A stretch of DNA of 64,000 bases from a virus (Duplodnaviria; Caudoviricetes): the IMG/VR virus record IMGVR_UViG_3300020037_004820; one strand, 5' to 3'. This document shows, piece by piece, positions 1 to 62,306 of the stretch (the first letter of the stretch is position 1; every line of letters begins with the position of its first letter). Below the pieces are notes generated by a model. The model did no database searches. It was given only the letters and a program-made list of their open reading frames with translations, and was not told the origin of the DNA. The translations under genes and the position numbers were made by a program.

Positions 1-942
1 GATCGTTTCCCATCATATACATCTATATGAAACTTGAAATCATATTGTTTAACGATTCTTTGCATTTCTGCAACAGTTTTTCCTTGAATAAGGGAACAAA
101 TTTCTTGTTTAGAGTATTTCATGGTATTTTACTTTCTCTAATTTCATAGTATTTACAATTATCCATTCCTGGCAAAACCTAAAACATATGATATCATATT
201 TGATCCTTCATTTGTTGTTTTTTTCTTTGAATAGCATTTGCTAAAATCTGTTTTTTATGATTTATTAAATCATTACTTATATTCGTATAGTGATAGAAAT
301 TATGCTGTTCAAAAAAATCTGAATCATCTGGCAAAATGTATCCGCCATAACTGGCTATTCTTTTGATTTTGCCATATTGAATTTTTTCATAAATATATTG
401 TTTCATTATATAGCATAATGAGCATTTACAAATTTTCCAATTATGAGAAGAATGATCTTTTTTTATCCGAAAGAATAAGCCAGCTATAATTGTCTGATGT
501 TTATCAGCAACAAGCTGGCTTATTCTTTCATTAAGCTTATCTAAATTATCCATTTAGGAGTAAACTAAAATCACCGGAAAGAGCTTTTTCAATAACTTTT
601 TCTTTCTTTTTAATAGACTCGATAGCTTTTTTACGTTCTTCTACTTTTGCTTTTGACCAATTTTCGGATACAAGTTTACCATCAGCATCATAAGATTGAA
701 CATCTGGCTTGATCTTTTTGAATTCATTTCTCGCTTTGTTACAATCTTCAACTGCTTTGAATAGAAGATCAGTACGTCTGGTAACTTCTAAGTTTACAAA
801 CTGATCAACAACAGCATTAGATATTTGCTTGGTAGCATTAGAAATTTTCAGTGCAACTGTTTTATTCAATTCACTAAGAACATCTGCATTTGCATCTTGT
901 GTAGTATCAAGTTCTGGATTTTCTGTACTCATCATTTATCCT

Positions 943-2076
943 TTAGGTATCTCTTTTGGTTTTGTAAACTGCGACAGTTACAGGAAAACGCGGAACTCCA
1001 TCAGGAGTATATTGGAAGAATTTCACTGTACCTTGTCCGCCGATATAGCTCTCTGCGTCTATAAGCAGCTTCGTATAGTAGTCAACCCCACCCTTGATTC
1101 CTGATCGAAATAGACGCCCATCTGGCAATTTGTACGTTATTGCGCCGGCCATGCCTGAGCGATTGCCGCTGCCTTCTTCGATTTGTACAATATCGAACTC
1201 CGCGTCTTGGAACTCCTTGCGCTTTAAGAGCTTATTTGTTCTCTTGTTTGCATAAGGAGAATTATGACGAACAATTTGTCCTTCATAACCTTGTCCAATA
1301 TATTGTTCATAAAGCGCATCTAAAGTTCTTTGATGAGGTATGTGAGAAGTTTCTACTAAATGTAGTATTCCTTCTTCAACTATTTTATCGAAGAATAATC
1401 CTGCTAAAAATTCCATTCTACCAAAAAAAGGAGTCTTATCAGGTTCAAGCAGTAAGCAATCGTATATATGATACTGAATCAGTAATTCTGATTGTTTTAA
1501 ATCTTCGGGCGTTGGTTTTGATTGTTTCGCTAAAGACATTATCTTATTAAAATCATCCTTTAATTGATGATTATATATTTCTCCATCTAAAATTAATCCT
1601 GGGTACAAATCAAAAATAGGAGAAAGAGCTTCCAATATATGTGGACAAGATATGATTGGTTTGCCTTGACGGCTCCAAAGACCATCTTTTTTAGCTATAC
1701 ATCTCATGCCATCCAATTTCGGCTGACAATAAACTCCTTCTGCATATTCTTTAGGAGTAATTGGATGATCATTATAATCTTTTGCTAACATAGGTTTGAA
1801 GAAATTATCTTCATCTATATCGTCAATTGATTGATTATAATTACCTTGAGCCAATTTCTTTTTATATTGAGATTGAACTTCTGCATGAGCTTGATCGTCA
1901 GGAGAAGTTTCATTCTTTTTTCCAATATTTTTTCCTAAACAAGATGTCCATTCGGTGACAGTAATTTTACCGTCCAGTTGTCCAGAAAAAGTTCTATATT
2001 TAGAACCTTCCTGTTCCATATACCAAGTCTGAGTTGCACCAGTTGCAGTCTTTTTGTAGAGAGTTGGGAATATCAT
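943..2076 (-). CDS. ATP-dependent DNA ligase
   Basis: Motif I KLDGMRC, LDGEIY, EGQIVR, LLKRK and C-terminal OB fold ending PRFPV; N-terminal WGR-like segment. Confidence 0.9.
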   Translation of the reverse strand: MIFPTLYKKTATGATQTWYMEQEGSKYRTFSGQLDGKITVTEWTSCLGKNIGKKNETSPDDQAHAEVQSQYKKKLAQGNYNQSIDDIDEDNFFKPMLAKDYNDHPITPKEYAEGVYCQPKLDGMRCIAKKDGLWSRQGKPIISCPHILEALSPIFDLYPGLILDGEIYNHQLKDDFNKIMSLAKQSKPTPEDLKQSELLIQYHIYDCLLLEPDKTPFFGRMEFLAGLFFDKIVEEGILHLVETSHIPHQRTLDALYEQYIGQGYEGQIVRHNSPYANKRTNKLLKRKEFQDAEFDIVQIEEGSGNRSGMAGAITYKLPDGRLFRSGIKGGVDYYTKLLIDAESYIGGQGTVKFFQYTPDGVPRFPVTVAVYKTKRDT

Positions 2077-2596
2077 GATTTAGATATGTTCCTTTGTTCC
2101 ATTTCCGAAAGTTCTCTTTCTATTTGAAGTTTCTGTAATCTTAGTTTTGCAAGAGCTTCTTCATGTTTAGACTTTTGGTCCGATAACCGTTGGTGCTCTC
2201 TATACTCATTCCATGCAGCCATCTCCTTCAAATAATTATTTTTCAACTCTGCATTTTTCAACTTAATTGAAGGATCAATAACATACAAACAAACATTGTC
2301 TGATACATCATAAGAATCCACCAAAGGATGACTAGATGTCAAATGAATATGAGATCTTTCATAGAATCTTCCAGATTCTTTTAATTGGGTTAAAAAATTA
2401 TTTATTTCTTTATCAAAGCTATCAAGAGAATAACAATCTACGTTAACTAACGTAATGGCTTCTGGATCATCCATGTCATCTAGTATTCTCAATACAGGAG
2501 GATCGCAATGCCAAATTTTATCTTCAGAGTAATTCGGAGAATTTGGTTGTTTAATCGGCCGGTCTATAATCAAATTTCTATCGTTTTTTCCTGTCT

Positions 2597-3091
2597 TCAT
2601 ATTTTCTCACCAAGTCTGATTAAAGCGCTAATATAATTTTGCATTCTTATCATATCTTTTTCTGTAAGATTCTTATTCTTAAGACGCCATACTTGAAGGT
2701 TATCTTTGATATCTTCGATTTTTATCTTTCGTGCAACAACTGAATTGGCAACACGTTCTACTCGTTCTGCATATGTTTCGCCTTCACGCTTTGTTAAAGC
2801 GTCAATAGCCTTGCATTGAGCAGCAGTAAATCCTAGTTTAAGAAGATCATCAATAGTAAATTGAGTGTCTTCAATAAGATCATGACATATTGCCACAATC
2901 ATTTCATCTTCTGAATCCATCTTCTCCATAACTCGGAGCGGATGCCTTATATAACTGTTTTGTCCTTTATCTTCCTGTCCAGCATGTCCAATAACTGCTA
3001 TAAGAAGCGCTTTATCCAGCGTAAGCGGACCTTCCAATATGGTTTCTATTTTATCAAATATTTGTTTGAGTAACTTTGCTTTGTCGTACAT
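2597..3091 (-). CDS. HD-domain hydrolase, RelA/SpoT (Mesh1-like) small alarmone hydrolase family
   Basis: HAGQEDK..YIRHPLRV, HDLIEDT and KIEDIKDN match the (p)ppGpp-hydrolase HD pattern. Confidence 0.75.
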   Translation of the reverse strand: MYDKAKLLKQIFDKIETILEGPLTLDKALLIAVIGHAGQEDKGQNSYIRHPLRVMEKMDSEDEMIVAICHDLIEDTQFTIDDLLKLGFTAAQCKAIDALTKREGETYAERVERVANSVVARKIKIEDIKDNLQVWRLKNKNLTEKDMIRMQNYISALIRLGEKI

Positions 3092-3448: not shown

Positions 3449-4585
3449 TCAACGATTTCTAAGCAGAACTTCTGCTATCGAAATTTGTTCTCTATTCATT
3501 CCAAACCAACTTTCTAAGTAAATGTCTCGAATAATAGAATCTAATTTTTCCGAATCAACTTTATCAGGTAACTTTGAATTAGTAAATGCAACTTTCAGTA
3601 TATCTTCCATCTCATCTTTAGTCTTCATTATAATATCATATGTATCTAATTCGTAATAACCTTTCTTAATATCTAAGAGATAACTACGTCGGTCTTCGGG
3701 TTGTTTTAAAATTAAACCTTTACCATTTAATGCATCTTGGCATTGGAAATAAAGTCGTATCAAGTGTGATGCATGTTTAGTATCACAACCACATTTTACT
3801 TCTGTTGCGTATCGTTTAGGATTTCTAGTTTCTTGCCAAGTTAAGAATTGTTTATATTCTCTAACAATATTTTCATATTTTCGCTCTTGATTAAGAGCTA
3901 ACATAATATCTGAATCTAAGCCAAGAACTTTTCCGGCCGCCCACCATTTTTCATCACTTCCAATACGCATTTCTTCTAGCATTTCTGCAAGAGCGTTTAT
4001 AATATCTATGCGTTCTGCAAAGTTTTGATCTGTAAGATCTTTTAAATTCCAAGCATCTAATTTTTTGGTTATAGAGGCATTAATGGCCTTAATGCTATTC
4101 GAATCTAATACAGGTTTAGAAGGTAAACCAAATTCTTCTCTAGAGAGAGGAGGAACAGGAGGATTTGTCATCCAACGTCTATGTCCTTCTAATCTAGCTA
4201 ATTGACTTTTTGCATATCCGCTAAAAGTAAAATAAATCTTTTTAGTAAGAAACATATCTCTTACAGAGATCAATTTCTGACCATGAGGAGTACAATGCAA
4301 AACTTCGGTAGGTTCTACGAATAAAATTTCCAAAACGTTAGGATTAGCATCCGCAGCCAATTTAGCAAATTTCTTTAATCCGAATAATGTAAGATCAACT
4401 TCATAACCATCATGTTGATGTTGTTGTATTTGATCAAAACTTTGATAATACGAAATAAATTCTTCTACAGGTTCTACGATTATGCCACGAATATCTCGAT
4501 CACTTTCAGGAGTATTAAGTCCATAAGCATGCGATCCGTGTAATACACTTAGAATAGAGTCTTTAACTGTTTTTGAGGTTTTCAT
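3449..4585 (-). CDS. Pol-beta superfamily nucleotidyltransferase (RlaP/YcgL-like)
   Basis: GSHAYGLNTPESDRDIRG (GS..DxD), ANPNVLE, KHASHLIRL. Confidence 0.8.
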   Translation of the reverse strand: MKTSKTVKDSILSVLHGSHAYGLNTPESDRDIRGIIVEPVEEFISYYQSFDQIQQHQHDGYEVDLTLFGLKKFAKLAADANPNVLEILFVEPTEVLHCTPHGQKLISVRDMFLTKKIYFTFSGYAKSQLARLEGHRRWMTNPPVPPLSREEFGLPSKPVLDSNSIKAINASITKKLDAWNLKDLTDQNFAERIDIINALAEMLEEMRIGSDEKWWAAGKVLGLDSDIMLALNQERKYENIVREYKQFLTWQETRNPKRYATEVKCGCDTKHASHLIRLYFQCQDALNGKGLILKQPEDRRSYLLDIKKGYYELDTYDIIMKTKDEMEDILKVAFTNSKLPDKVDSEKLDSIIRDIYLESWFGMNREQISIAEVLLRNR

Positions 4586-7989: not shown

Positions 7990-9567
7990 TTATTGCTTGT
8001 TATTCGACTTATCAATAATCTCTCTAGCAAAATGCAGAACTTGATCAGACCATCCGCCAAGAATATAAGTTCTGTTATAAAATTCAGGAATGATTGTATC
8101 TTGGTATCCAGCTACTTGAACCAAAAAGACATTAACATTCGGATTAACCGTTTGTCTGTATTTTTGAACAAGTTTCGGAACATCAATATTATTGCCATTC
8201 TGCCAACGGTAATCCTTATATTCAGCGTTGTTCACACCGTATAAGCCCCCATGACCGGCTTGCATATCAGAATATATGAACACGGTGTCCCAATGCTCTT
8301 TTTCCTTGATAGCTTTATCCCAAAACAGCCATATGCCATTTTCAGTGCTTTGTCCAATCTTGTTTCGATCTGCTTCAAATTGCTTGAGCTTATCTAAGAT
8401 AGATTGCTTCTTTCTCACAACTTCTGTGACTAACTTATCCCCAAATCGGCCAATGTGACCTTCCTCAGAAGATAAAGCAGTCAACCATGCTGTTAGATTT
8501 GCAATCTGCGCAACTTCCATTGTTCCCATTGAAGAAGTTGTAGCACCCCAAGCAGAACCACTATTATCGCAAAGCGACATAGTTTTTCCTTCAAACTTAG
8601 GAATGTTTTCGATCGCTTGAAGCAAGCAATCTTCCAGACCATCTAGAACGATAGCTGGAGCATTAGGAACAGCTTTCATAGCACTAAAGTATCTAAAAGG
8701 AAGTTGCTTACCTGTAGCTACTCCTTCCTTTAGCTTATCCATGAACAACTTAGGATCAACTTTATTGTCCAACAGATTTCGAATATTGCGCAAAAGCGCC
8801 ATATGTCCCATTACATTTAGTGCCTCAGTCCAAGACTCTTTATTGGAGCCTTTTGCTGAAATGATAGCTTCCCAGGTTTCTCCTGTTTGAGACAATTCCC
8901 CGCGAACTAGCTTGTTTACAGCATCGCTTTTTGGGTGAACCAAATTTACAACGTCAACCGTCTTTATGGTACGGTTTCGCATTGTATATTTAGCAAGTGA
9001 ATATTCAGATGCCTTTTCAAGAGCATCTTTCCATGCACGCTTTAGAGAATTAGGAATAGCTTTCCTACCAAATCTAGAGATTTGATAAGCCAAACCAACC
9101 GAAGGTTCATCCATTCTTTTTACAATGGACGGAGCATACTGTCTGATTAAAGACGTACCTTTCACTTTAGGATGTTGAGCTGCTCGCACAAGAATAACTT
9201 GAGGAGTTGTACGAATGTTCCACGCATTGCGCAATTCTGCGGCAAGCTTAAGAGTTGCTTCTGGATCATAATCCAAAGCTTTATCAATAGCAGACTCCAT
9301 CAATTCTGATGCGTTGAGTTTATTCCACTCAATAGGCATTAAAGAATCTAAGGTATCATTTAGATGAGTTACAAGAGAGGGAATAACATACTTCGGTGTA
9401 GAAGTTTTCTTCGCCGCTTCACCATCGATATAATATGGTGGCTCTCCAAAAAAGCTAGAAGCAGCCGCCATTTGCAGTGTTGCAATTGGATTCTTTAGAA
9501 ACCAAGAAGAACCATTCATAAAATTCTTATGAGAAGTATCTATAACTTTACGTGTTGTGTTGATCAT
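7990..9567 (-). CDS. rsr: Ro60/TROVE-domain RNA-binding protein with vWA domain
   Basis: HMALLRNIRN, QLPFRYFSA, MIDAS-like CDNSGS, YSDMQ, GGWSDQV; 525 aa. Confidence 0.9.
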   Translation of the reverse strand: MINTTRKVIDTSHKNFMNGSSWFLKNPIATLQMAAASSFFGEPPYYIDGEAAKKTSTPKYVIPSLVTHLNDTLDSLMPIEWNKLNASELMESAIDKALDYDPEATLKLAAELRNAWNIRTTPQVILVRAAQHPKVKGTSLIRQYAPSIVKRMDEPSVGLAYQISRFGRKAIPNSLKRAWKDALEKASEYSLAKYTMRNRTIKTVDVVNLVHPKSDAVNKLVRGELSQTGETWEAIISAKGSNKESWTEALNVMGHMALLRNIRNLLDNKVDPKLFMDKLKEGVATGKQLPFRYFSAMKAVPNAPAIVLDGLEDCLLQAIENIPKFEGKTMSLCDNSGSAWGATTSSMGTMEVAQIANLTAWLTALSSEEGHIGRFGDKLVTEVVRKKQSILDKLKQFEADRNKIGQSTENGIWLFWDKAIKEKEHWDTVFIYSDMQAGHGGLYGVNNAEYKDYRWQNGNNIDVPKLVQKYRQTVNPNVNVFLVQVAGYQDTIIPEFYNRTYILGGWSDQVLHFAREIIDKSNNKQ

Positions 9568-9746: not shown

Positions 9747-9766
9747 ATTTTTTTCATATGTCCACC

Positions 9767-9835
9767 AAGACAGAGAATTGGTTGTAGAGTGTTGTTTCTG
9801 CAAATTGAAGTAACTCTACTATTTACTGCTGTCTT
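9767..9835 (-). ncRNA. Short Y-RNA-like element 3
   Basis: aagacag/ctgtctt terminal stem, tagagt/actcta inner stem, TTACTTC and ATTCT motifs. Confidence 0.7.
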
Positions 9836-9841
9836 TGTATT

Positions 9842-9885
9842 TGGTGCAAGTGACAGAATTCTGTCACAGGATTCTGTCAAGTGCA
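9842..9885 (-). pseudogene. Scrambled 3' remnant of a disrupted tRNA-Gly
   Basis: Ends CACTTGC-A-CCA, complementary to GCAAGTG of the 5' half at 10385-10426; T-arm fragments gaatcctgt/gaattctgt are duplicated. Confidence 0.6.
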
Positions 9886-9890
9886 ATTTT

Positions 9891-9964
9891 TGGAGCAGGA
9901 TAGGAGAATCGAACTCCTTTAGCTAGCTTGGAAGGCTAGGTCACAACCAATATGTCAATCCTGC
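9891..9964 (-). tRNA. tRNA-Gly(TCC)
   Basis: GCAGGAT/ATCCTGC, CTAGC-CTTCCAA-GCTAG, U73, CCA. Confidence 0.9.
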
Positions 9965-28944: not shown

Positions 28945-31900
28945 ATGTATAATAATTTGATAATCAATAATATTCAAGAAGCATTTTGGCCAGAAGATAA
29001 AACAAAGTTAAACGGCGCCGCTCCTAAAAAAACAGGAAATCCGCAAAAAGAACCAGAATTATTCGGAAGTGGAGATACGTCAAAAGTAGAAAATGCTTAC
29101 AAAACATATTTTAGAAAATATATTGATGGAGAAGTTACAATTGGAGGAAAACCTTCAAGAAAAACAAATATTACTTTAATAGGTCCTGCTCCTGGTACTC
29201 CAATTGATGAGCAAGAAAAAGCAGAGTTAATTTATAAAGAAGCTGAAGCAATATTAGGCGCATATATTAAAGAAATTTTCGGAGAAGAACAAACACATTT
29301 TAAAGAAGTTTCTAAAAGAGTATCAGATGTAAAAGATTTAGTTAAATCTAAAAATCTTTTACAAAAAGTATATGATAATATATCTAAAAAATTAAGTAAA
29401 TCACAACAAACTAAAGTTGATAAACAAGCTTCATCTATTGTTCATACTGAACCTTCTCATAGAGGAGAATATACTCATTCAACTGAAACTGAAAAAGTTC
29501 CAGCGCCAGGAGATCTTTATGATCAAGAAGGCGCTATTGACCAAGATGTGACAAAAGTTTCAAAACTTGGAAAAGCTGTAAAAAATATTAATGCCCCTTT
29601 AGCAGATGCTGAAAATGCAAATCGTGCAAAAGTTGCAGAAGATAATCGTCCAACAAATCCTTATGTTATATATAATAACAAATCTTCTACAGGTTTTTCT
29701 AGAGTTGTAGTTAGAGCAGATGGTACAGCAATTACTCAAGATGTACCTCAAGCGGAATATTATGCAACAAGTCATATAGGAGTTCCTACCTTAGATGATA
29801 ATAGACTTAATGAAGAACAAGAAAGAATTTCTGTTCAAATAGAAAATTTGACAGCAGAAATAGCGGCTAAATCTCGTGAGAATGATGCTATATCTAAAAT
29901 AGTTGATCCTAAAATTGATCAATATGTTTTACGTGTACTAAATGTTTCTAATGATGGGACATCTTCTTGGCCTAATGCACAAAGAAGACCTCCACAAGCT
30001 AATCCTGCTTCTTCCCCTTTATCATTATATAATCAAGCTATTAAATCGAAAAATCTTGGAGAAGTAAAATCTAATTTTATGGCATTGGAACAAAACGTTG
30101 CTCCAATATTTGCTGATTATTTTGGTTTATCAGAGCTTCATTTGGAAGGTATAGTTGATCAAACTACATCAGAGCCAAAGTTTCCTCAAATTCAATTAAT
30201 GAATTTGATTATATCTAGAGTTATTCAAAAAATTCATTCGGAAGCTAAGAAAAGTGATTTAATCAAAAGAGAGTTATCTTTAATTTCTGCTGGTGAATCT
30301 ACAAAGATAAATGATCCCGCAGCTTTCTATACAACTCCTGGTGGAGAATATAAAGAAAGACTTAATAGAACATTAAAATCTATATCAGAAAATGAAGTAA
30401 TAGCTTTTCAAAAATTGTTTGCAGAAAACAAATATGCTGCAATTGGGCAAGCCTTTTCCAATGCAGAAAGACTTATGTATTCAACTATTCAGAAAAATGT
30501 GAATGCTATAAATGTCTTTTTAAACCAAAACAAAGGATCTGTTTTAGCATATGCTAAATCTTTGCAAGAAAAGATAATAAGATATTCACAAGCTGCTCCT
30601 GTTAATCAATATGAAACAGAATATGAAGATATAGGACTTACAGATGCTTTTGAAAGTCAATCTTCTTTGATTGGTAAAAAATGGAGAGAACGTTTCTCTA
30701 AGATACCCGCAGAAGCAAAACCTTTCTCAGAAATTTCTGCCTTTATAAAGTTAGTGGATTCTAAATTTTCTAATCAAGAAGCTATAGATCAAGAGAATTT
30801 TAAAGTTACAGCTCAAGAAATGTCTTCTACATTTTTTAATCCTGTTTTATTCTTTTTGAGTTTATTAGATAATCCAAATGTATTAAAAAATGATCAAATT
30901 GATGCAACTGAATTAGTACGATCAGATTGGGGCAAAAACCTTAGAGATTATATGGGAGCTCAAAAAATCTCCTATTCAACTCCTAGAGAAGATTTAGCAG
31001 TATTATTAGATATTAACAAATTTATGCGTGATGGTCTAAGTAAAGTAACTGTTGATAATCCTTCTAGTGAGTTAGGTCAAAGATTACAACAAGCTGGGGA
31101 ATCTCAACCATCTCCCGTAAAAAATACTGCTGGTTTACAACTCATGTCTGGAGACAGAGATGTTCTTGTTAATACAAGAGATTTCATTAATAAACTTAAA
31201 ACAGAATTACCAACGAGTTATTCTGCTTTGATATTCTCTGAATTAGGAAGGTTGCGTAAAGAAATATTAGCTAAGAAAGCATCTAAAGAATTTGAAGCAG
31301 CAGCTCAAATATTCAATGGTCCATATTCTAAAGCTAAAGAAGATGTAATTGCCATACTTTCTCCTATATTAAGAGAATTCTTATTTGAAAGATATGCACA
31401 AGATACTAGACTTATTGAAACTGAACATTTGTTTTATGCAATGCTTCGTGAATTCAATAAATTAGTGGAAAATTATGATCCCGACTCTGGACAAGATATT
31501 GAAACTTATCTTTTGTCTGGATTGAAAGATTTTAATCGTTCTAAAGTAGTAAGGGCTATGCATGGTGGATCAGATCGTTTGTGGTATATCCCCCAAGATA
31601 ATGAATCTATTATGGATATTATTCATGCTATATTGGATGCTGCTGAAATCAAAGAAATGCATAAGAAAGAATCTTTTCATAGTGTAAGAGAAATTGCATT
31701 AAAACCTCCAGAGCCAGAATTTAACTCTAATAGTGCTTCTTTAGTTAAGAAACGTTATTTAGAAAAACAAGCTTATGAGGCAGAAAAAGCTCGTTCTATA
31801 AAAAGAGTAGATAAAAGAACAGGTAGAGAAATTTATGAAGTTTTAGATGTTGCAGACAAAGATGTAACATATTATACAATTGAACCTAAAGAATCTATAG

Positions 31901-34900
31901 TTAGAGATCCTGAACAAGCTGCGCAACTTATAGCTAAGTTATGGAGCAGTTTGGAAAAAGTATTTTGGAAAAAATTAGAACGTATTGGATTTTCTCCTAA
32001 AGTTGTATCTTCGTTAGAAGGTGAAGATAAGATGAGCACGCCTAGCGATGAAATTCATTCCAGAGCCTCGGCATTCTATTTCCATCAAATAGAGACGGCT
32101 TTAGGGTCCAAGACAGCAGGCGGTAAAGGTAAAAAGGGTAAAAAGGTCCTAGAGCCTATTGCATCCGACGATAAGGATAAACAAAATCAGCATAGAGCTA
32201 TACCTGCTCAAGAAGCTCAATTGGTTGAAAAAGATAACCAAATTATGGAATTGCTATCTATGGCAGGTCTATTATTTGATTCAATCAATATAGACGAAAC
32301 TGAATTTATGAGCAGAGTTGGTCAAAACATATTTGCGCAATTAGATACTTCTGCAAATATAACAGGTTTGATCAAATCAATTGTAGCATCTATGTTCAGA
32401 AAAGATTGGGGAACTGTACACTCTCTATTATTTAAACCTATTGGTAAAGATGCTAAAAGCGAAGGTCCATGGATAAATGCTAAGCAAATTTCTCCTGAAG
32501 AAAGAGCAGATGTAAAGCCACCATTAATGGTTGTATTAGGTACTATATTAGCCACTTGTATTGATTTAATCCATACTAGTGCTCAAGCTTTTAAAGAAGG
32601 ACAAGGTAAAAAACTGAGTCAATCTGGAATATTTGAAAAATTAGGTGTAGAAGAATTGTACTCAGGATATTCTAGAGTATTAGATTCTTTGAAGGAATTA
32701 TTAAATTGTGCATTCTTACATAGAATTGGACAAGTTCAACCAATGAGAGGTATTCCAAAAGGAAGAGGTGTAACCGCTAAAGGAAGATGGGGAGTGATCG
32801 GTTTCAATGCTGATCAAACTACTTCAATTAGACACCCCTTTACTGTTCGTGGAAAATGGGCAAAAATGGCTAAAGGTTTAGGGCACGAGTTTGCTCAAAA
32901 TCAAGATCCAACTTCTGATACAAGACAACAAGCGATGTTAGCTGCACAAAATGCACAAAATCGTTTCATGTATAAATTACAACAACATTATAAAGGAGAA
33001 GGTGACCCAGTTAATACAACTAATGTATTGAGAACATTAGGAAATTCTATAGAAGGAGAAATTGGTGGAGCATTTAAAGATTTATATCGTTCAAGAAGAT
33101 TTGCAGGGTCTTCTTGGAAAAATAGAGATTTAGACCAATATCATTATAAGATCATAAAGCAGTTGAAATCAGATATAGAACAATTAGGTTATAGACCTGA
33201 TCGTCCTGAATGGTTTGTTCAAAATGAAAACTTACAAGCTAGAGCTGTGGATATAGTATCTGAGGATATCAAAAAACAATTTTTACAAGGAATTGAAACA
33301 GGTAAAACACTTGCGGGTCCAGGTGAAAAAGAAGATGCAACTTCGGGCGTAACTGGTCCATCTAATCCATTACATAGAAGTGGTAAAAATCCTTCATCTA
33401 GATTATTAGGAGATGTTGCACCGGATTCTAAATTGAATCCTAAGCATGATATAGCTTCTAATCAATTTGACTATGAAGCTCCAGTTGAATTAGATATAGA
33501 TCCTGGTTTTGCAGGAAACACCGCAGTGGATAAATTGACTGCGGATCAAAAGAAAGCAGATGCTGAAAAACGTCTACAACAATTTATAGAACTTTATCCG
33601 CAATTCTTAGAAGAAAAGGCTATGATAAACGTTTCTATGTTTGAACCAAAAACTGAGAATCAAACATTAGAAGAAACATTAGAAGGAGCAGCAGCTTCTG
33701 ATGATGTTAATACATTAAATGTAGCAGTTCATGAATTTGATAATGTTTTAGATGATTGTTTTGCAAGAATAAGTCAAAAAGTTGATAAATATAACGACAA
33801 TAAATTCATTAAATCATATAAGAATTTAGATGAAACAGAAACAAAACTTATAAATCAAGATTTAGATAATCTTGATTGGCAAATTACTCAAACTCCTCTT
33901 GAATCTAAAAGACATTTTAAAGCTGCTTTATCTTTGCGACCTGATTCGGACAGAGAACGTGATAAAGCATTTAGAGATATTCTATTTATGAAATATTTTG
34001 AATATGTTTACATAAGAGAAGTTTTGCTAAGTGAAACTATCATGTATTTGATGAATATAGAAAATAGTAGAAAAGGACCTTCGGAGAAGAAAATAGAATC
34101 TATTGCCGAATATATTCAACAATCTAATTTAAATATTAGACATATACCTGGAGTAGAATATAAATTCTATAGAACAGATGACGTTGCACATCGAATAAAG
34201 ATGTCAGATATGCTTAAAGCTATATTTGGAGATGTGGAAAAAGTTCCACAATTCTTAGCAATTGCTGAAGATATTAAAGAATACATTGGGGGAGCTACGG
34301 ACCAAGCGGGAGATACTAAAGAAGATAAAGCAGATAAAGATAGTGCTCAAACTTATGGTATGTCTTCTAAATCAACTGCGCAAACCGATGTTCATGGTGT
34401 AGAAGCAACTAAACAAGGAAAACAAGAAAAAACTAGAGTTAGTGCAATAGATAAACAAATGTTTAATACATTGAATATACAAAATGTATCTAAAATAATG
34501 TCTAAAGTTCTTATGTCTGATGCAGAACCAAATTATGAAGGAGATGTATCTTATGATAAAGTAAGAAGCTACATTAGATCATTAGTTCAAACATATAATG
34601 AACCTATTACCACTAATTCTGCTACAGATAGAATTGTATGGTTTATATCTCATATAAAAGATAACGTCATAAGAATTAGAAACTTTTTACAATCAGCAGC
34701 AAATGCTCAAGCTCTTGTAAAGATGTCTCCGTTTGATAGAAAAGAAATATTTGGAGCAATAGATAATGTTCTACGTTTCTCGACATATCAGGCAAGAAAT
34801 GTTCTGAATCTTAAAAAATCAGTTTATAAGTTGATTCAATTAATGTATAATGCTCCAATTGGAGAAGAAGTTGATTATGATACATTTGATGTTTCATCTG

Positions 34901-35697
34901 CATCTGATAAGCTAAAAGAAGTTACTAAAGCAGTTCAAATAGCAACAAAAACTCCTTATGAATCTTTTGTACCACCATATACAAAAGAATTAGCAACTTC
35001 TCTTCAATCATTTGGTAAAATGATTCAAAGTGGAGCAATAGAAGCACCTGATAAAACTGCTGCATATTTGACAGATAAAGGCGGATTGATACTCACTATT
35101 ATGTCTTATTTGAAGACAAATGGGAAAAAACCTGTTGATGTTTCTGTATTTGATAATCTATCTAATTCTCTTGATCAATTATTAGATCAAATAAAGACAT
35201 TAGCTAAATTGAATGCAGAACCTAAAGCACGTTATAAAGATCCAAATGCAGGAAAAGTATTACCTCAAGATAAAGCAACATCTGCTTCTTCGGGAAAATT
35301 AGGAAGAGCAACTCCTAATCAAAATATTAGTCCAGAAGATCAAGAAATAGTTAAAAAACTTCAAGCTAAAAAATCCGTAACTAAAGAAAGTAGAGATTTT
35401 GAACCTTTTAAAGAAGCTATTGCTGTAGAAAAAATCTTAAAATGCATCAAGATGCAAAGTGGCGGGATACAAAGAGTAAGATATTCAGAATATAGCAAAG
35501 CTAATCCTGGTAAATTGTCTAGAGTTTTATATGAATTATCTAAACAAACTCCAATTGATTTGGATAATTATAGAGTATTCTTGACCGAAGAAAATAAGTC
35601 TAAAGTAAATATAGTATTTGAATATAAGAATGAGAATAGAGGATTATCTCCAGAATATATATGGATTGTTCCAAAAAGTTCTAATTCTTCTAATTAA
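28945..35697 (+). CDS. Giant hypothetical protein, 2250 aa (possible virion or ejected protein)
   Basis: Uninterrupted 6.75-kb ORF, GGAG RBS, ACTATTTATA upstream; no recognisable motif. Confidence 0.75.
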   Translation: MYNNLIINNIQEAFWPEDKTKLNGAAPKKTGNPQKEPELFGSGDTSKVENAYKTYFRKYIDGEVTIGGKPSRKTNITLIGPAPGTPIDEQEKAELIYKEAEAILGAYIKEIFGEEQTHFKEVSKRVSDVKDLVKSKNLLQKVYDNISKKLSKSQQTKVDKQASSIVHTEPSHRGEYTHSTETEKVPAPGDLYDQEGAIDQDVTKVSKLGKAVKNINAPLADAENANRAKVAEDNRPTNPYVIYNNKSSTGFSRVVVRADGTAITQDVPQAEYYATSHIGVPTLDDNRLNEEQERISVQIENLTAEIAAKSRENDAISKIVDPKIDQYVLRVLNVSNDGTSSWPNAQRRPPQANPASSPLSLYNQAIKSKNLGEVKSNFMALEQNVAPIFADYFGLSELHLEGIVDQTTSEPKFPQIQLMNLIISRVIQKIHSEAKKSDLIKRELSLISAGESTKINDPAAFYTTPGGEYKERLNRTLKSISENEVIAFQKLFAENKYAAIGQAFSNAERLMYSTIQKNVNAINVFLNQNKGSVLAYAKSLQEKIIRYSQAAPVNQYETEYEDIGLTDAFESQSSLIGKKWRERFSKIPAEAKPFSEISAFIKLVDSKFSNQEAIDQENFKVTAQEMSSTFFNPVLFFLSLLDNPNVLKNDQIDATELVRSDWGKNLRDYMGAQKISYSTPREDLAVLLDINKFMRDGLSKVTVDNPSSELGQRLQQAGESQPSPVKNTAGLQLMSGDRDVLVNTRDFINKLKTELPTSYSALIFSELGRLRKEILAKKASKEFEAAAQIFNGPYSKAKEDVIAILSPILREFLFERYAQDTRLIETEHLFYAMLREFNKLVENYDPDSGQDIETYLLSGLKDFNRSKVVRAMHGGSDRLWYIPQDNESIMDIIHAILDAAEIKEMHKKESFHSVREIALKPPEPEFNSNSASLVKKRYLEKQAYEAEKARSIKRVDKRTGREIYEVLDVADKDVTYYTIEPKESIVRDPEQAAQLIAKLWSSLEKVFWKKLERIGFSPKVVSSLEGEDKMSTPSDEIHSRASAFYFHQIETALGSKTAGGKGKKGKKVLEPIASDDKDKQNQHRAIPAQEAQLVEKDNQIMELLSMAGLLFDSINIDETEFMSRVGQNIFAQLDTSANITGLIKSIVASMFRKDWGTVHSLLFKPIGKDAKSEGPWINAKQISPEERADVKPPLMVVLGTILATCIDLIHTSAQAFKEGQGKKLSQSGIFEKLGVEELYSGYSRVLDSLKELLNCAFLHRIGQVQPMRGIPKGRGVTAKGRWGVIGFNADQTTSIRHPFTVRGKWAKMAKGLGHEFAQNQDPTSDTRQQAMLAAQNAQNRFMYKLQQHYKGEGDPVNTTNVLRTLGNSIEGEIGGAFKDLYRSRRFAGSSWKNRDLDQYHYKIIKQLKSDIEQLGYRPDRPEWFVQNENLQARAVDIVSEDIKKQFLQGIETGKTLAGPGEKEDATSGVTGPSNPLHRSGKNPSSRLLGDVAPDSKLNPKHDIASNQFDYEAPVELDIDPGFAGNTAVDKLTADQKKADAEKRLQQFIELYPQFLEEKAMINVSMFEPKTENQTLEETLEGAAASDDVNTLNVAVHEFDNVLDDCFARISQKVDKYNDNKFIKSYKNLDETETKLINQDLDNLDWQITQTPLESKRHFKAALSLRPDSDRERDKAFRDILFMKYFEYVYIREVLLSETIMYLMNIENSRKGPSEKKIESIAEYIQQSNLNIRHIPGVEYKFYRTDDVAHRIKMSDMLKAIFGDVEKVPQFLAIAEDIKEYIGGATDQAGDTKEDKADKDSAQTYGMSSKSTAQTDVHGVEATKQGKQEKTRVSAIDKQMFNTLNIQNVSKIMSKVLMSDAEPNYEGDVSYDKVRSYIRSLVQTYNEPITTNSATDRIVWFISHIKDNVIRIRNFLQSAANAQALVKMSPFDRKEIFGAIDNVLRFSTYQARNVLNLKKSVYKLIQLMYNAPIGEEVDYDTFDVSSASDKLKEVTKAVQIATKTPYESFVPPYTKELATSLQSFGKMIQSGAIEAPDKTAAYLTDKGGLILTIMSYLKTNGKKPVDVSVFDNLSNSLDQLLDQIKTLAKLNAEPKARYKDPNAGKVLPQDKATSASSGKLGRATPNQNISPEDQEIVKKLQAKKSVTKESRDFEPFKEAIAVEKILKCIKMQSGGIQRVRYSEYSKANPGKLSRVLYELSKQTPIDLDNYRVFLTEENKSKVNIVFEYKNENRGLSPEYIWIVPKSSNSSN

Positions 35698-50462: not shown

Positions 50463-50622
50463 AATACTAAGGAACCTTCTATGTCAGCAGATAGAGAAGT
50501 AAGTGATGGCCATGAGTGGAACAAGCAGAAACGTACTGATTTCACTATAGCCGAAATTGTTGGAGTTATTATCCTTTTAATAACTGTTATTTGTATTGGT
50601 GTCCTTTAATCAAAGGAGATAT

Positions 50623-51330
50623 ATGACTGTTAAAATATATGAAGTGGGTGGAGCAGTTCGCGATCAATTTCGAGGAGTTAAGTCCAACGATATTGATTTT
50701 GCAGTTGAGGCTTCGTCTTATGAAGAAATGAAAGATTATGTTCTTTTCTCAGGTGCAGCAATTTTTATTGAACATCCTGAATTCGTTACCATTCGCGCAA
50801 AATGGTGTCCTCCTGGCTTAACTAAAGCTGTTCCTTGTGACTTCACATTATGCAGAAAAGAAGGAGAATACCTTGATAATAGGCATCCTTCTTCTTGTGA
50901 ACCTGGCTCAATCATTGAAGATTTAGCGCGCAGAGATTTTACAGTAAATGCTATTGCTAAAGACTGTGTAACTGGTGAATTCATTGATCCTTTTGATGGT
51001 AGAAAGGATATCGAACATCGTATAATTCGTTGTGTTGGAGATCCCAATAAGCGTTTTGTTGAAGACGCTTTGCGTATCATGCGAGCAATTCGCTTTAGCA
51101 TTTGTATGCAATTTGATATTCATTGTACAACGCAGGCAGCACTGTTTAACAATCTTGATCTCTTAGATAAGATTTCCGCAGAACGAATCCTGGCGGAATT
51201 ACATAAGATGTTCAGGTATGATTCTTTGGTGACGCTTAAAGAACTAAGCAAATTCAATAGATATCAATTATCTAAAATGTTCAATGAGCGAACGGGTATT
51301 TGGTTAGAACCTACAATGAGGGAAAAATAA
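50623..51330 (+). CDS. cca: tRNA nucleotidyltransferase (CCA-adding enzyme, class II)
   Basis: VGGAVRD..DIDF, DLARRDFTVNAIA, EDALRIMRAIRF, ISAERI. Confidence 0.9.
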   Translation: MTVKIYEVGGAVRDQFRGVKSNDIDFAVEASSYEEMKDYVLFSGAAIFIEHPEFVTIRAKWCPPGLTKAVPCDFTLCRKEGEYLDNRHPSSCEPGSIIEDLARRDFTVNAIAKDCVTGEFIDPFDGRKDIEHRIIRCVGDPNKRFVEDALRIMRAIRFSICMQFDIHCTTQAALFNNLDLLDKISAERILAELHKMFRYDSLVTLKELSKFNRYQLSKMFNERTGIWLEPTMREK

Positions 51331-52066
51331 ATGAAAGTTGTTAATAAACAAGTTCCGACAATTTATGTAGAAGTCCAATCATTAAAAGTTGGAGAATTGT
51401 TTAGATATTATCCTAATACAGCCTTGGATGAGGTTTATATGGTTGTAGATTCTTCCCGATTTACAACCACTATAAGTGATTTTCCTAATATACAAACTGT
51501 TGTGTGTTTGAAAACAGGTAGTCTTTATACATCTCAAAAAACTTCCAGAGTCATTCCTATGATGGGACAAGTGGAAATTTGGGATAAGTAATGAAGAGAG
51601 ATTATCAATTTTATTGGATTAAATGGAACCAATCTAAGGAATTGGTTGTAGCAGAGAAAAAAGAAAGTGGATATTATATCCCTGGATGGGAAATTGCTGT
51701 AGATGAGTCCAAGTTTACAGTTTTAAAGAAAATTAAATCTCCAGAGAAAAATTAAGGTGTAAATAATGAGTTTGATTACAGCGTTTGTTATTATGTTTTC
51801 TAATATGGGAAGTAATGCTCCTAAGTTTGAGGTGATTGATATGCCTCCAATGTATATTGTTGCAAATATGAAAGAGTATTCTCCTGAAGATAATGTTCGA
51901 GAATCGATAAAGATTCTTCGGAAGTATACTCCAACATATATGGACATGGAATGATTATAGTAGGTGCAATATGTTTAGAGATAGGAATATTTCTAGGTTT
52001 ATTGCTTAGGTTGAGCTATTTAGCTCGTACTAAACGAAATGAAAAAATTGTGAAGATATTCACATA

Positions 52067-52278
52067 GATTAGGCGGTAGGCTTAAGAGTAGCCAGAGATT
52101 GTAGTTCAATTTCTCATTCCGTTAAAGAGTAATAACTGAGGCTAAGATAGACCAATAGGATAACCAGATCTAGTAACGTAGAAATGTTACTAGAGTTATC
52201 TAAAGAATCCACTGAACAGGAGAGAGTTTGTTTTACAAGGCTATAACCAGTTATTTTTGGTGTAACAACACACTAATC
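52067..52278 (+). ncRNA. RNA mimicking the 23S rRNA L11-binding domain (H43/H44), with two insertions
   Basis: GATTAGGCGGTAGGCTTAAGAGTAGCCA..CCGTTAAAGAGT..GGTGTAACAACACACTAATC aligns to GCCAGGAUGUUGGCUUAGAAGCAGCCAUCAUUUAAAGAAAGCGUAAUAGCUCACUGGU with compensatory changes. Confidence 0.75.
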
Positions 52279-52282
52279 ACGC

Positions 52283-52305
52283 AAGGATCGGTTAACCGAT
52301 CCTTT
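52283..52305 (+). terminator. Terminator after the rRNA-mimic RNA
   Basis: aaggatcggt-ta-accgatccttt. Confidence 0.65.
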
Positions 52306-54460
52306 GTCGTTTAAGGATCAAAATGAGTTCCAAAAGAGTTTGGGAAATTTGGTGCCCAGGTGTTCATGTTATGGAAAGAATTAAATTAGAAATACCTGAG
52401 ATTGCTGCACGTTTCTTTTTTAATGATCATTGTACAATTTATCCAACTGAACCAGAAGTTTATAAGATGGAAATGCTTAATGTTGAAACGAATAAATGGG
52501 TTGCATCTGAAAGACTTCGTTGGAATAGAATTGGAAAATATGTGCATTTTCCAGTAAATAATATGGCAGAGTTTTTCCCTATAAAAGAAGGCTATATCAA
52601 TGCCGTAAATGATATGGTTAATTATCTGAAAAAGAATCCGCGACCGTGATCGGCGCCTGTCGAGGCTGGCCCTTGCCATCGCCCGCAAGGTGCCTACAGT
52701 CCATATTGAGGCAATGCGCCACGCTGGCGCGGCCTTGACCCTACCTTGCCAAGCGGAGGCTCACAGTGCAAGACCCTGAATATTTCAATATGGAAAAGCG
52801 AGAAACTTATCACTTTCATCAAATGGAAAATGATAATATAAGTGTAGATAAATTCTTGGAGTCCTTTCATTCGGAAATTCAAGAGTTTCTAATTCAATTA
52901 GAAAGAACCCTAGGATTTTATCCCTCTCCTAGAGAAGTTAATTTTACATATGAAATTGATTATCCAAATGAGCGTGGTTACGATTTTGAAGGTGTGGCCT
53001 ACGGAAAGTTTACATATAAACATATAGAAGCAGATAATGATCATTATCTGAGAATTTCACAAGAGCTTTCTGCAATGAAAGCTTTTTATGCTTGCAAAGT
53101 TAAACAAGCAAATGATCTTGTGGAATCTAAAAAGATCACTCCAGTAAACTTGATTCAAGAAGATCATTATAAAACTAAGAGAAATAAAGCTCTTGCTCAT
53201 CTTATGACATTGGCTTTCAATGATTCAACTTATGAAGCTGTTCTTCGAGAGATAAAGAAATATTCTCCTGAGCAATTGAAAGCTGAAAACGATCAACGTA
53301 AAGCGAATGCGAATATTGATCTCGAACATCACATTAAGGCTCTAGAGCGTCAAATTAGATTTTTGAAAAAAACAGATATTCTCATTCAATATCTTAATGA
53401 ATTGTATCCGCAATTTGCGAAGAAAGGAGAATAACATGAAGAAATATGAAATTGATTGTTGGGAATTGACAACACTATCTGGAGATGGTGTAAGAGATGA
53501 ACATGTTGCATTTATTGCTTCAAAATCAGAAGCAGATAAGTATGCGAAAAAACACTCAATTGGATGGCCAGTATCTGTAACTCGTTATAGGAAGACTATA
53601 GTTGTCTGGGATTCAGAAGAAGAACTGGAATATAATTCTCCATTAAGCATTAAGAAAAGAGCCTTGAACAAGATTAAGACTTTGGAGTTATCGGAAGAAG
53701 AATTGCGTATTCTAGGAATAGCGCTCTAATATGAATTTATCAGCAATCATATCTAAATTCCTAAACGAATTATGGTTGCTTATTGTACAATTTTGGTCAA
53801 GTTGGAAAACGATTAGGTTAGAAGGAAGATAAATTGCTTTTGACAATTACTGCGGGCAATGTGTTGACAGGATTAGCATTTCTTGGTGTGTTTACTCTCT
53901 TTTGCTGCATATCTTTATTCATAGTAGTAGCAACACATGTTCCAGTTCCAGAAAAACCTTTGAAGGAGAACGATGATGAGCTTTTTTGATATATGGGGAG
54001 CATGTATAGTTTTAGTATTGGGAGTTGGACTAAGCATAGTGTTGATAATGCTATTGCTGCATTTTACATTCTCTACTAAATGGATAAAGGCTAAAAACAA
54101 TAAGCCTAGTAAATTGACATAGCATATTGGAGTGAGTATGTTTGTCTTAGATATGCTAAATAAAGACAAAGTGTTTCGTCAGATAATAAGAGAGATTCGA
54201 TCAGAATTTTCTTCTTTTGAGTATTTAAGAATTGTACCTCAAGAGGTATATATCAATATTGTTATTCCGATTATGAATACTGTATGTAATAAATATCTCG
54301 GAGGTCCAGATATTTATTATTCTTTTGCCTTAGAACGTGCTGCGCATGATAAGACAAGAGATAGGATTGAATTAGAAATTGGACTCTTTATTAAAGAAGC
54401 TTATGAAGAAGAATCATTTAAACGTTATAAGTTTTCTTTATCTTTCCAAGGAAATGGAAA

Positions 54461-55525
54461 ATGAAAATTGCAGTTTTAACAAGTGGTGGTGTTGATTCTG
54501 CTTTTGCATTGCATAATTTGCAACGTGAAGGACATGATGTTACAGCTCATTATTTGAAGATCTGGAATCCTCAATATGAACAAGAAGGATCATCTTGTCC
54601 TTGGCAAGAAGATGTCGATAGCGTTAAAGCTATTTGTACGTTATTGAACGTTCCAATGGTGATTCACAATCTCCAGATTGAGTATGAATTTACAGTAATG
54701 GCGTATATGCTTGAGGAATTGAAAGCAGGCAGAACACCTAATCCAGATGTTTACTGCAATCCTTATATCAAATTCGGAGCATTCTTCGATAATATTTCAT
54801 TTAAAGAATATGATTATGTTGCTTCGGGACATTATGCAACAAAGAAGAATATAGAGGATGATCACATTTATTGGCATTCTGGTGATCCTCTTAAGGATCA
54901 ATCATTCTTTCTATCTAAAGTAAAACCTGAACAGTTCAAAAAGATTATCTTTCCTTGTTCGACATTTGGAAAGAAATATATTAGAGCTTATGCAGCGACT
55001 TATAATCTTCCTCAAAAAGATAAGAAAGATTCGCAAGGATTATGCTTCATCGGAAAGGTGAACTATTCAGAATTTATTAGCAAATATATCCCCAATGTCC
55101 CTGGTCCAATTATTGATGTGACAACTTCACAAGTTGTTGGGGAACATAATGGATTACATTTATATACGATTGGTCAAAGGCATGGAATAGAAGTTAGCAA
55201 TGGTCCATGGTATGTATCGTCTAAAAATATAGACAGTAATATATTGTATATTATTAACAGAGTGCATCTTCATCGAACTATGACTGATATAATGCCAATT
55301 ACCAAAGCTAATTGGAATGGTATACCTAAGTATTTCAAATATAAGCATCCACAAGTCAAACTATTGACTGGAAAATATGTAATTAACTCTTCTTTTCATA
55401 ATCCTCAGCAGGATGAAGCTATATTGTTAGATGAGAAAATTTCTTATCTTTCTTTTTCACCTGGACAAGTTGTTGCAGTTTATGACGAAGATCATAAACT
55501 GATAGGAAATTGTGTGGTGAGATGA
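54461..55525 (+). CDS. mnmA: tRNA 2-thiouridylase
   Basis: SGGVDS, TPNPDVYCN..IKFG, SGHYA, KDQSFFL, DSQGLCFIG, TIGQRHG, PGQ. Confidence 0.92.
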   Translation: MKIAVLTSGGVDSAFALHNLQREGHDVTAHYLKIWNPQYEQEGSSCPWQEDVDSVKAICTLLNVPMVIHNLQIEYEFTVMAYMLEELKAGRTPNPDVYCNPYIKFGAFFDNISFKEYDYVASGHYATKKNIEDDHIYWHSGDPLKDQSFFLSKVKPEQFKKIIFPCSTFGKKYIRAYAATYNLPQKDKKDSQGLCFIGKVNYSEFISKYIPNVPGPIIDVTTSQVVGEHNGLHLYTIGQRHGIEVSNGPWYVSSKNIDSNILYIINRVHLHRTMTDIMPITKANWNGIPKYFKYKHPQVKLLTGKYVINSSFHNPQQDEAILLDEKISYLSFSPGQVVAVYDEDHKLIGNCVVR

Positions 55526-61796: not shown

Positions 61797-62306
61797 ATGT
61801 CAGATAGAATAATATTTTTAGATGTTGATGGTGTTTTGAATAGCGATCAAGTTTGTTTTGAAATCAGAATGAACGATATTAATCAAAATGGTTACGGTGG
61901 ATTTTTTGGCGGAACAGTTACTCCAACACATGCTCTTGTTTGTTGGGGACAAGAACTTGTTGATAACCTTAGAGAAATTGTAGAAAAGACTAATGCACAA
62001 ATTGTTATTTCTTCTACATGGAGAATAACTCATCCTGTAAAACAATTTATAGAAATGTTTAAAATATATGGTTGGGACAATGCTCCAGTTATAGATAAAA
62101 CTGAACATTTAGGTACTCAGCGCGGGTACGAAATTTCTAAATGGTTAGAAAGACATTCAGAAGTTAAACAATATGTCATATTAGATGATAACTCTGATAT
62201 GTTAAAAGAACAAAAAGATAACTTTGTTCAAACAGATGAAAAAGTAGGTTTATCTAAACAAGATGTATTGAAAGCAATTGCTATTTTGGAGAAAAATAAT
62301 GAATGA
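61797..62306 (+). CDS. HAD-domain phosphatase (Swiss-army-knife RNA-repair type)
   Basis: FLDVDGVLN, IVISSTWR, RGYEISKWL, YVILDD. Confidence 0.85.
   Translation: MSDRIIFLDVDGVLNSDQVCFEIRMNDINQNGYGGFFGGTVTPTHALVCWGQELVDNLREIVEKTNAQIVISSTWRITHPVKQFIEMFKIYGWDNAPVIDKTEHLGTQRGYEISKWLERHSEVKQYVILDDNSDMLKEQKDNFVQTDEKVGLSKQDVLKAIAILEKNNE

Follow-up and report, generated by a model that had tools for sequence, protein, structure and literature searches.

Of the translation apparatus, phages have been found to encode tRNAs, tmRNA and a few ribosomal proteins. An intergenic stretch in a 64-kb window of DNA from an uncultured large phage (the window being the whole stretch analysed) raises the question of whether they also carry, as a gene in its own right, a functional centre of rRNA, and what such an RNA could do away from the ribosome. 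A first-pass annotation had read a 212-nt non-coding RNA (ncRNA) on the + strand of this window, at 52067–52278, as a stand-alone mimic of the H43/H44 domain of the 23S rRNA GTPase-associated centre (GAC). In Rfam 15 and the searchable literature we found neither a conserved, free-standing RNA that copies a functional centre of rRNA nor a description of the RNA family reported below; as a gene type it has no precedent. Should such an RNA bind uL11, or enzymes directed at the GAC, viruses would have a new route to manipulate or protect the ribosome, and a class of host defences against the GTPase centre might come to light.

Architecture of the ncRNA and its relation to 23S rRNA

The ncRNA lies between a 38-codon open reading frame (ORF) ending at 52067 and a 108-codon ORF starting at 52323, and itself contains only a 32-codon antisense frame. 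Because no promoter-like site was detected upstream and the ncRNA begins on the final base of the 38-codon ORF’s stop codon, the ncRNA is likely to be the 3′ end of a longer transcript, probably a + strand transcript covering the gene for a CCA-adding enzyme and several small ORFs. Downstream, the closing helix is followed after 4 nt by a terminator stem-loop at 52283–52304 with its T run, the only terminator-like site in a scan of 51500–52800, and about 18 nt further on by the ATG at 52323. The ncRNA thus does have the terminator of its own that had been ascribed to it. Its parts, in E. coli 23S numbering, were assigned by motif check, minimum-free-energy (MFE) folding and alignment to a covariance model.

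52067–52072 (+), GAUUAG, which forms the closing helix on its 5′ side and corresponds to the top of H42; G52072 is G1055, and the strand pairs with 52273–52278 (MFE fold, model alignment)
52073–52078 (+), G1056 and the 5′ strand of lower H43 (C1057, G1058, G1059, U1060, A1061); CGG pairs with CCG at 52119–52121
52079–52093 (+), upper H43 hairpin GGCU-UAAGAGU-AGCC, 1062–1076 with the 1067 loop (motif check, model alignment)
52094–52115 (+), extra hairpin specific to this member, in the H43 internal loop between 1076 and 1078; 8-bp stem, UAGUU loop (MFE fold)
52116–52121 (+), 3′ strand of lower H43, AUUCCG, about 1077–1081 (motif check, MFE fold, model alignment)
52122–52130 (+), junction UUAAAGAGU: UUAAA (the 1082–1086 mini-hairpin, closed by U-A), then GAGU (1087–1090) (model alignment)
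52131–52256 (+), inserted variable domain (126 nt) that leaves H44 between 1090 and 1091; an elongated, irregular rod with AAUAACUG/CAGUUAUU as its closing strands
52257–52272 (+), H44 mimic: UUG, G1091-U1092, loop GUAACA (1093–1098), A1099-C1100, A1101, C1102, A1103 (motif check, model alignment)
52260–52273 (+), H44 string GU-GUAACA-AC-ACAC (motif check)
52273–52278 (+), 3′ strand of the closing helix, CUAAUC; C52273 is C1104 (MFE fold, covariation, model alignment)
52283–52312 (+), intrinsic terminator: 9-bp stem and 4-nt loop at 52283–52304, then a T-rich tail

All the motifs listed by the first-pass annotation are present where it had placed them, and so is the inserted domain that it described as closed by aataactg/cagttatt, which measures 126 nt rather than about 120 nt. 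The unconstrained MFE fold of the ncRNA recovers the listed helices (−70.7 kcal/mol, z = −5.2 versus shuffled sequences), and together with the model alignment it gives the three-way junction of the GAC, with the closing helix, the H43 hairpin with its internal loop and the H44 hairpin in the same order. The two ends of the ncRNA rebuild the top of H42, H43 and H44 of 23S rRNA (E. coli 1055–1104). Features shared with the GAC (E. coli 1051–1108) are the three-way junction, the 4-bp upper stem and 7-nt loop of H43, the 1082–1086 mini-hairpin with its two adenines, the H44 hexaloop GUA..A, the pairs G1055-C1104 and G1056/A1103, and the nucleotides of the H43–H44 tertiary contacts. In contrast to the GAC, the phage RNA is free-standing and outside any rRNA: an Rfam LSU search of the 64-kb window found no rRNA gene, whereas the same tool recognizes the real 23S rRNA in Paenibacillus phage Pd_22F at once. 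It also has a short variable helix in place of H42, the 126-nt insert at 1090/1091 and the hairpin at 1076–1078. The Rfam search proposed by the first-pass annotation returned no family for the element from Rfam 15, at the gathering threshold or at E values up to 10.

To compare the ncRNA with its presumed model, we used a covariance model, R1, built from 14 compact phage members of the family, with the window element left out of the training set. Searched against the window together with the E. coli 23S locus (67 kb; the E. coli sequence was read from NC_000913.3), R1 gave exactly two matches: the window element at 52067–52279, over the full length of the model (positions 1–142; 48.3 bits, E 4e-8), and E. 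coli 23S 1050–1110, the true GAC (42.4 bits, E 7e-7). As a model made from phage RNAs only finds the true E. coli GAC, the resemblance is not due to chance. Other family members align by blastn with E. coli 23S 1055–1088 at 88–91% identity (E 1e-8 to 2e-7).

Covariation among homologues, on which the first-pass annotation had made its reading depend, was found when the rRNA pairing scheme was laid on a MAFFT alignment of the 14 compact members that was blind to structure. In this alignment, 97.4% of paired cells are occupied by pairs, as against 75.5% in shuffles, 13 pairs are changed on both sides, and the covariation score is 0.393 (0.114 in shuffles, with 0 of 500 reaching the observed value; 0.03–0.13 in slid-partner controls). 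The helices are 94–100% paired across the family. The closing helix covaries at 9 of its 12 pairs, each changed on both sides; pair 1058–1080 is A-U in six sequences, U-A in five and G-C in two; and the upper H43 stem occurs as GGCU/AGCC, GCAU/AUGC and GGAU/AUCC. Pair 1082–1086 is U-A in eight sequences, C-G in four and A-U in one, and the same U-A/C-G swap distinguishes E. coli from H. marismortui rRNA (PMC2952862). The compensatory stem changes claimed for the window ncRNA are borne out at two pairs that differ from E. coli, 1057–1081 (A-U to C-G) and 1058–1080 (U-A to G-C); the C-G pair at 1057–1081 sets the window member apart in a family in which 54 of 56 members have A1057. At the level of sequence and pairing, we regard homology of the ncRNA with the GAC, or else very close convergence, as established.

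The resemblance extends to the nucleotides that shape the domain in three dimensions. The 58-nt rRNA domain folds independently and binds L11 (PMC2719339), binding that needs the tertiary fold (PMC6239185); in that fold, two contacts staple H43 to H44, G1071 with G1091-C1100 and C1072 with C1092-G1099, and the junction collapses around the 1082–1086 mini-hairpin and two A-minor adenines (PMC2952862). The window ncRNA keeps, at the sequence level, G1071 and G1091-C1100, U1072 with U1092-A1099, U1060, UUAAA (1082–1086, at 52122–52126, with A1084-A1085), G1087-C1102, G1056/A1103 and the G-U-A-N-N-A loop of H44. The triple 1072/(1092-1099) is U/(U-A) in the window and phage RNAs, in contrast to C/(C-G) in the member from Xanthomonas phage XacN1; the U/(U-A) form would keep the hydrogen-bond pattern of C/(C-G). 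Covariation between these two forms has reportedly been described for rRNA by the Draper and Gutell laboratories. Position 1061 is A in the window ncRNA and likewise in most members, and the U1061A change stabilizes the tertiary structure of the rRNA domain (PMC2719339). Some of this conservation has to be read with the way in which members were collected: the heuristic fixed H43 loop positions 1066 and 1071, partly 1070 and 1072, and the H44 block, so that conservation at these positions is partly circular. The H44 loop is nevertheless G-U-A-N-N-A in members retrieved by the H43 pattern alone.

One nucleotide departs from rRNA. A1067, an exposed nucleotide that contacts thiostrepton and is the target of Tsr methylation (PMC2719339), is present in the window member and is not conserved in the phage family (of 56 members, 20 have A, 34 have G and 2 have U). 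Its replacement by G or U in 36 of 56 members argues against a thiostrepton or factor contact at the H43 loop as the selected property. Judging from these sequences, position 1067 seems to be free of the constraint that rRNA imposes on it, with selection acting on the fold and not on the factor-contacting tip of H43.

The phage RNA family and its inserts

Homologues were retrieved by exact-pattern scans of IMG/VR and JGI metagenomes, for which the upper H43 hairpin at 52079–52093, a 15-mer, and an H44 17-mer supplied the patterns. Many of the loci carry both blocks in the same order, 50–350 nt apart, and a simple heuristic extracted 56 distinct sequences of 120–424 nt. They share a common layout, which in the 5′ half consists of a variable closing helix, GGA-N-GU-N, the H43 hairpin and AUC-N-U-UAAAG-AGU, and in the 3′ half of a variable insert, UUUGGU-GUAACA-ACACAC and the other strand of the closing helix. 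R1 matched at 72 places in 100 loci fetched by the H44 pattern and at 19 places in loci fetched by the H43 pattern, the latter including one real LSU rRNA (L137) and several duplicate contigs. These RNAs very probably form a family with the GAC fold, which we denote the GAC-fold RNA family. A match in the record of Paenibacillus phage Pd_22F (MZ092003.1) was rejected as a family member, as it belongs to a real 23S gene: positions 398–3037 of the fetched locus, a stretch free of coding sequences, hold a bacterial 23S gene that is nearly complete (Rfam LSU, 2618 bits) and stems either from host DNA taken up by the phage or from a chimeric assembly.

The carriers are mostly contigs of 60–470 kb. 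A scan of 185,579 species genomes gave only three to four true matches, all on contigs of metagenome-assembled genomes (MAGs), so that the family is essentially phage-borne and its hosts cannot be read from the scan. Named carriers, in which the RNA lies in unannotated intergenic DNA, are Yersinia phage fHe-Yen9-03/04 (in fHe-Yen9-04 at about 287794–288026 of the record), Xanthomonas phages XacN1 (locus L171, 1305–1535) and XaC1, and the Lak megaphages of Prevotella (MK250015–MK250029); the XacN1 genome paper makes no mention of 23S (PMC5852040). That members occur in cultured Yersinia and Xanthomonas jumbo phages opens the question of their function to direct bench testing.

Each of five large carrier records holds one copy, and a few loci hold two; in three of them (L077, L071 and L049) the two members lie within 1–2 kb of each other, so that some phages have tandem paralogues. 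A tRNA gene lies within 1 kb of 32 of the 56 members and within 100 nt of 18, often only 2–17 nt away, a spacing that suggests release of the RNA by tRNA-processing enzymes. The window copy has a terminator in place of an adjoining tRNA gene, the nearest being 1.6 kb off. In one locus (L153), a member at 2257–2431 (−) adjoins a phage-borne tmRNA gene at 2498–2786 (−; Rfam tmRNA, 103 bits). No neighbouring ORF is conserved beyond close relatives. A gene for uL11 was found in none of the five carrier records (three of them complete) and, by the same search, in 14 of 14 control genomes; any uL11 partner of these RNAs would therefore be that of the host.

The insert enters at the same point, after GAGU (1090) and before UUGGU (1091), in the window member and in all 56 members, and is otherwise hypervariable, ranging from about 50 to 350 nt, with at least 37 unrelated types among the 56 sequences and no shared motif or k-mer above the shuffled background. 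The window insert is strongly folded on its own (−32.4 kcal/mol, z = −4.2) and has no Rfam match. Neither it nor the extra H43 hairpin has relatives among 169 loci searched by blastn and nhmmer; a blastn search of 50,697 phage records with the window element returned nothing, and neither the CCA-adding enzyme nor the 108-aa protein encoded downstream led to relatives of the window’s phage. The insert consequently has no comparative support. We rejected a self-splicing group I or II intron as its identity: it is only 126 nt long, has no Rfam match up to E 10 and belongs to a set of inserts unrelated between members. The extra H43 hairpin is absent from the family consensus, and only one other member (L046) has a hairpin there, a different one at a slightly different point.

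Some members add a second rRNA motif to the GAC. The long class (about 390–424 nt, represented by L003 and the Lak megaphages) carries the sarcin–ricin motif AGUACGAGAGGA, or a near variant of it, in its insert: in L003 the motif is exact (13 of 13 bases of 23S 2653–2665), and in L043 and L083 two such motifs lie about 55 nt apart within the insert. A relative of differing arrangement is found on a 98-kb contig (L140, JAESFH010000079.1; 1960–2090, −), where a GAC copy that has no insert, lies outside any rRNA gene and has no tRNA nearby is preceded, about 60 nt upstream, by an exact sarcin–ricin motif. The motif is missing in 39 of the 56 distinct members. The window element has no match to it within two mismatches, and the four matches elsewhere in the 64-kb window equal chance expectation. 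The constant part of the family is thus the GAC, the sarcin–ricin loop being an accessory of some lineages. Window member and long form agree in their closing helix, in their GAC core and in where the insert enters, and R1 matches both; in contrast to the long form, the window member has an unrelated insert and an extra H43 hairpin and ends in a terminator, whereas the long form abuts a tRNA gene. The window member is therefore a variant without a sarcin–ricin loop, terminator-ended and doubly branched, with the insert leaving H44 and the small hairpin leaving H43. As a whole, the family amounts to a natural experiment on the GAC fold, in which dozens of sequences keep the tertiary contacts and tolerate branches at 1077 and 1090.

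A putative off-ribosome decoy for uL11 and its rivals

We propose, with a probability of roughly one half and from sequence comparison, that the ncRNA is a trans-acting member of a large phage-specific family that serves as an off-ribosome decoy, with uL11 as its primary ligand. After transcription, likely at the 3′ end of a + strand message that runs past the tRNA cluster and the CCA-adding enzyme gene, the RNA would fold like the isolated 58-nt rRNA domain and present the GAC surface away from the ribosome. Its most likely ligand would be host uL11, which recognizes the tertiary fold of the GAC, and the RNA would act as a sponge or decoy, pulling uL11, or a reader of the uL11–GAC surface, from ribosomes or newly made 50S subunits. 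Titration of uL11 could in turn blunt the activation of RelA. The closing helix is a plain, freely covarying Watson–Crick helix, which indicates that the uL10 site lower in H42 has not been copied. In the window member, the extra hairpin at 1076–1078 might hinder uL11 binding, as the H43 internal loop presumably lies, according to crystal structures of 1999, close to the place where uL11 binds. Free uL11 pools, and the benefit that a phage would draw from them, are speculative.

RNA imitation of this kind has known counterparts. The leaders of some ribosomal-protein mRNAs imitate rRNA sites, among them the L10 leader (RF00557) and the L1-binding leader of the L11 operon, and like the phage RNA they place a copied rRNA protein-binding site outside the ribosome. 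In contrast to the phage RNA, however, which copies the whole domain including its tertiary contacts, has no ribosomal-protein gene beside it and matches no Rfam leader up to E 10, they act in cis, as the 5′ leaders of ribosomal-protein operons, and reproduce only part of a site. 6S RNA, which imitates an open promoter, and the tRNA-like elements of viruses share the concept of a stable RNA that structurally imitates the ligand of a host protein; the phage RNA differs from them in imitating an rRNA domain, and its partner is putative.

Several other explanations compete with a uL11 decoy. The RNA may instead be a decoy substrate for a toxin, of the host or of a competitor, by which the GAC is modified or cleaved, so that ribosomes keep working during infection; we consider this unlikely. 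A bacterial toxin of this kind is Tre23, which ADP-ribosylates H44 bases 1095–1098 and blocks the GTPase of EF-G (PMC8661411). Even in members retrieved without reference to the H44 loop, that loop keeps G1093, U1094, A1095 and A1098, but 1096–1097, within the target window of Tre23, vary freely. The genomic setting also speaks for a decoy substrate: the window phage is rich in RNA damage control (Ro/TROVE, RlaP, HAD_SAK_2, CCA-adding enzyme), the XacN1 copy adjoins and follows a gene for a 2′-5′ RNA ligase, and many members lie inside tRNA arrays, which in phages are thought to counter tRNA-targeting defences. Set against this, a stoichiometric decoy has thousands of ribosomes to outcompete, and we know of no anti-phage system that targets the GAC. 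A serious rival, if a rather improbable one, holds that the insert, the least conserved yet well folded part, could carry the function, for instance as a module that binds targets specific to each lineage, and the GAC core a mere stable scaffold clamped by protein. The number and mutual unrelatedness of the inserts, the strong folding of the one in the window and the recognizable functional motif, the sarcin–ricin loop, in the inserts of one subfamily all favour this explanation. A mere clamp, however, would not need the GAC tertiary-contact nucleotides that are kept in all lineages, and the insert shrinks to about 50 nt in compact members such as L027 (member at 1675–1798) and is lacking in L140. 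Imitation of the whole factor-binding site, with the RNA itself binding translational GTPases (EF-G, EF-Tu, IF2 or RelA-type factors), is quite improbable. Long members do join the GAC to sarcin–ricin motifs, exact in L003 and doubled in L043 and L083, and L140 carries one just upstream of its insert-less GAC; EF-G is also said to bind oligonucleotide mimics of both sites (Munishkin and Wool, 1997). Yet most members lack the motif, which in the window does not rise above chance, and A1067, a factor and thiostrepton contact, is A in the minority of members noted above.

The order of structured RNA, terminator and then, 18 nt on, a gene with a Shine–Dalgarno sequence is what would be expected of a cis-regulatory leader or attenuator, in which a protein bound to the mimic would govern termination and, through it, the 108-codon gene that follows, much like the leaders of ribosomal-protein operons. 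This is very improbable: there is no evident alternative antiterminator pairing, the downstream protein has no family match, no neighbouring ORF is conserved across the family, many members have tRNA genes only 2–17 nt away, and the uL11 gene is absent from the five carrier records. The least probable explanation, at close to nil, is a captured, decaying and functionless piece of host 23S rRNA. Phage records can hold real rRNA, as the full 23S gene in the record of Pd_22F illustrates, but here compensatory changes maintain every helix across lineages, the insert architecture is common to the whole family, the family spans contigs from many environments, and a 50-nt core alone is kept, with no flanking rRNA sequence. 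We rejected an rRNA pseudogene on the covariation; with the recovery of the E. coli GAC by R1 and the absence of an rRNA gene from the window, this upholds the view of a stand-alone GAC mimic, and not decaying rRNA, taken by the first-pass annotation.

Carried to its full extent, the proposal of a uL11 decoy would mean that large phages of many lineages combine an rRNA domain that they have copied with the uL11 of the host into a stand-alone ribonucleoprotein, and thereby rewire the host translation apparatus, either by removing uL11 so that RelA cannot fire or by disarming enzymes that attack the GTPase centre. The RNA would then be without precedent as a trans-acting decoy of an rRNA functional centre, and the hypervariable insert would be the record of an arms race. 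We hold this wider proposal only tentatively, at somewhat less than even odds.

Gene content of the window

The ncRNA is flanked at some distance by genes of tRNA maturation, in a window that contains 27 tRNA genes and a kit for RNA repair and quality control.

50596–51330 (+), CCA-adding enzyme gene, upstream of the ncRNA
54461–55525 (+), gene for the MnmA tRNA 2-thiouridylase (thiolase), downstream of the ncRNA
7990–9567 (−), 3449–4585 (−), 61797–62306 (+) and 943–2076 (−), RNA repair and quality-control kit

The proteins of the kit are a TROVE (Ro60-like) protein, RlaP, which is a polymerase-beta-family protein of RNA repair pathways, a protein with the HAD domain of ‘Swiss Army Knife’ RNA repair proteins (HAD_SAK_2) and an ATP-dependent ligase. 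The best matches of MnmA, at about 35% identity, stand in records labelled as Listeria and Staphylococcus phage. The ORFs flanking the ncRNA encode no ribosomal-protein domains, and the downstream 108-aa protein has no match in Pfam, PHROGs or the ESM Atlas.

An HD hydrolase encoded at 2597–3091 (−) had been put forward by the first-pass annotation as a functional partner of the RNA. The 164-aa protein matches a (p)ppApp hydrolase (PDB 7smg, E 4e-29) and, at about 1e-6, RelA/SpoT hydrolase domains, its Pfam HD_4 match being sub-threshold only; by its sequence it is a small alarmone hydrolase homologue. The pairing, however, does not generalize: none of the five other carrier records (three complete) has an alarmone hydrolase gene, so that RNA and hydrolase are not a general pair.

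Two further features were noted in passing. The window contains a single ORF of 2250 codons at 28945–35697 (+). On a 469-kb phage contig that carries a compact member of the family (L027), a 200-nt RNA in a tRNA array (9754–9953, +) aligns with the archaeal RNase P model from one end to the other. With 46.8 bits (E 2e-10) against a gathering score of 84, the match is below threshold, and the RNA could be a miniature RNase P-like RNA.
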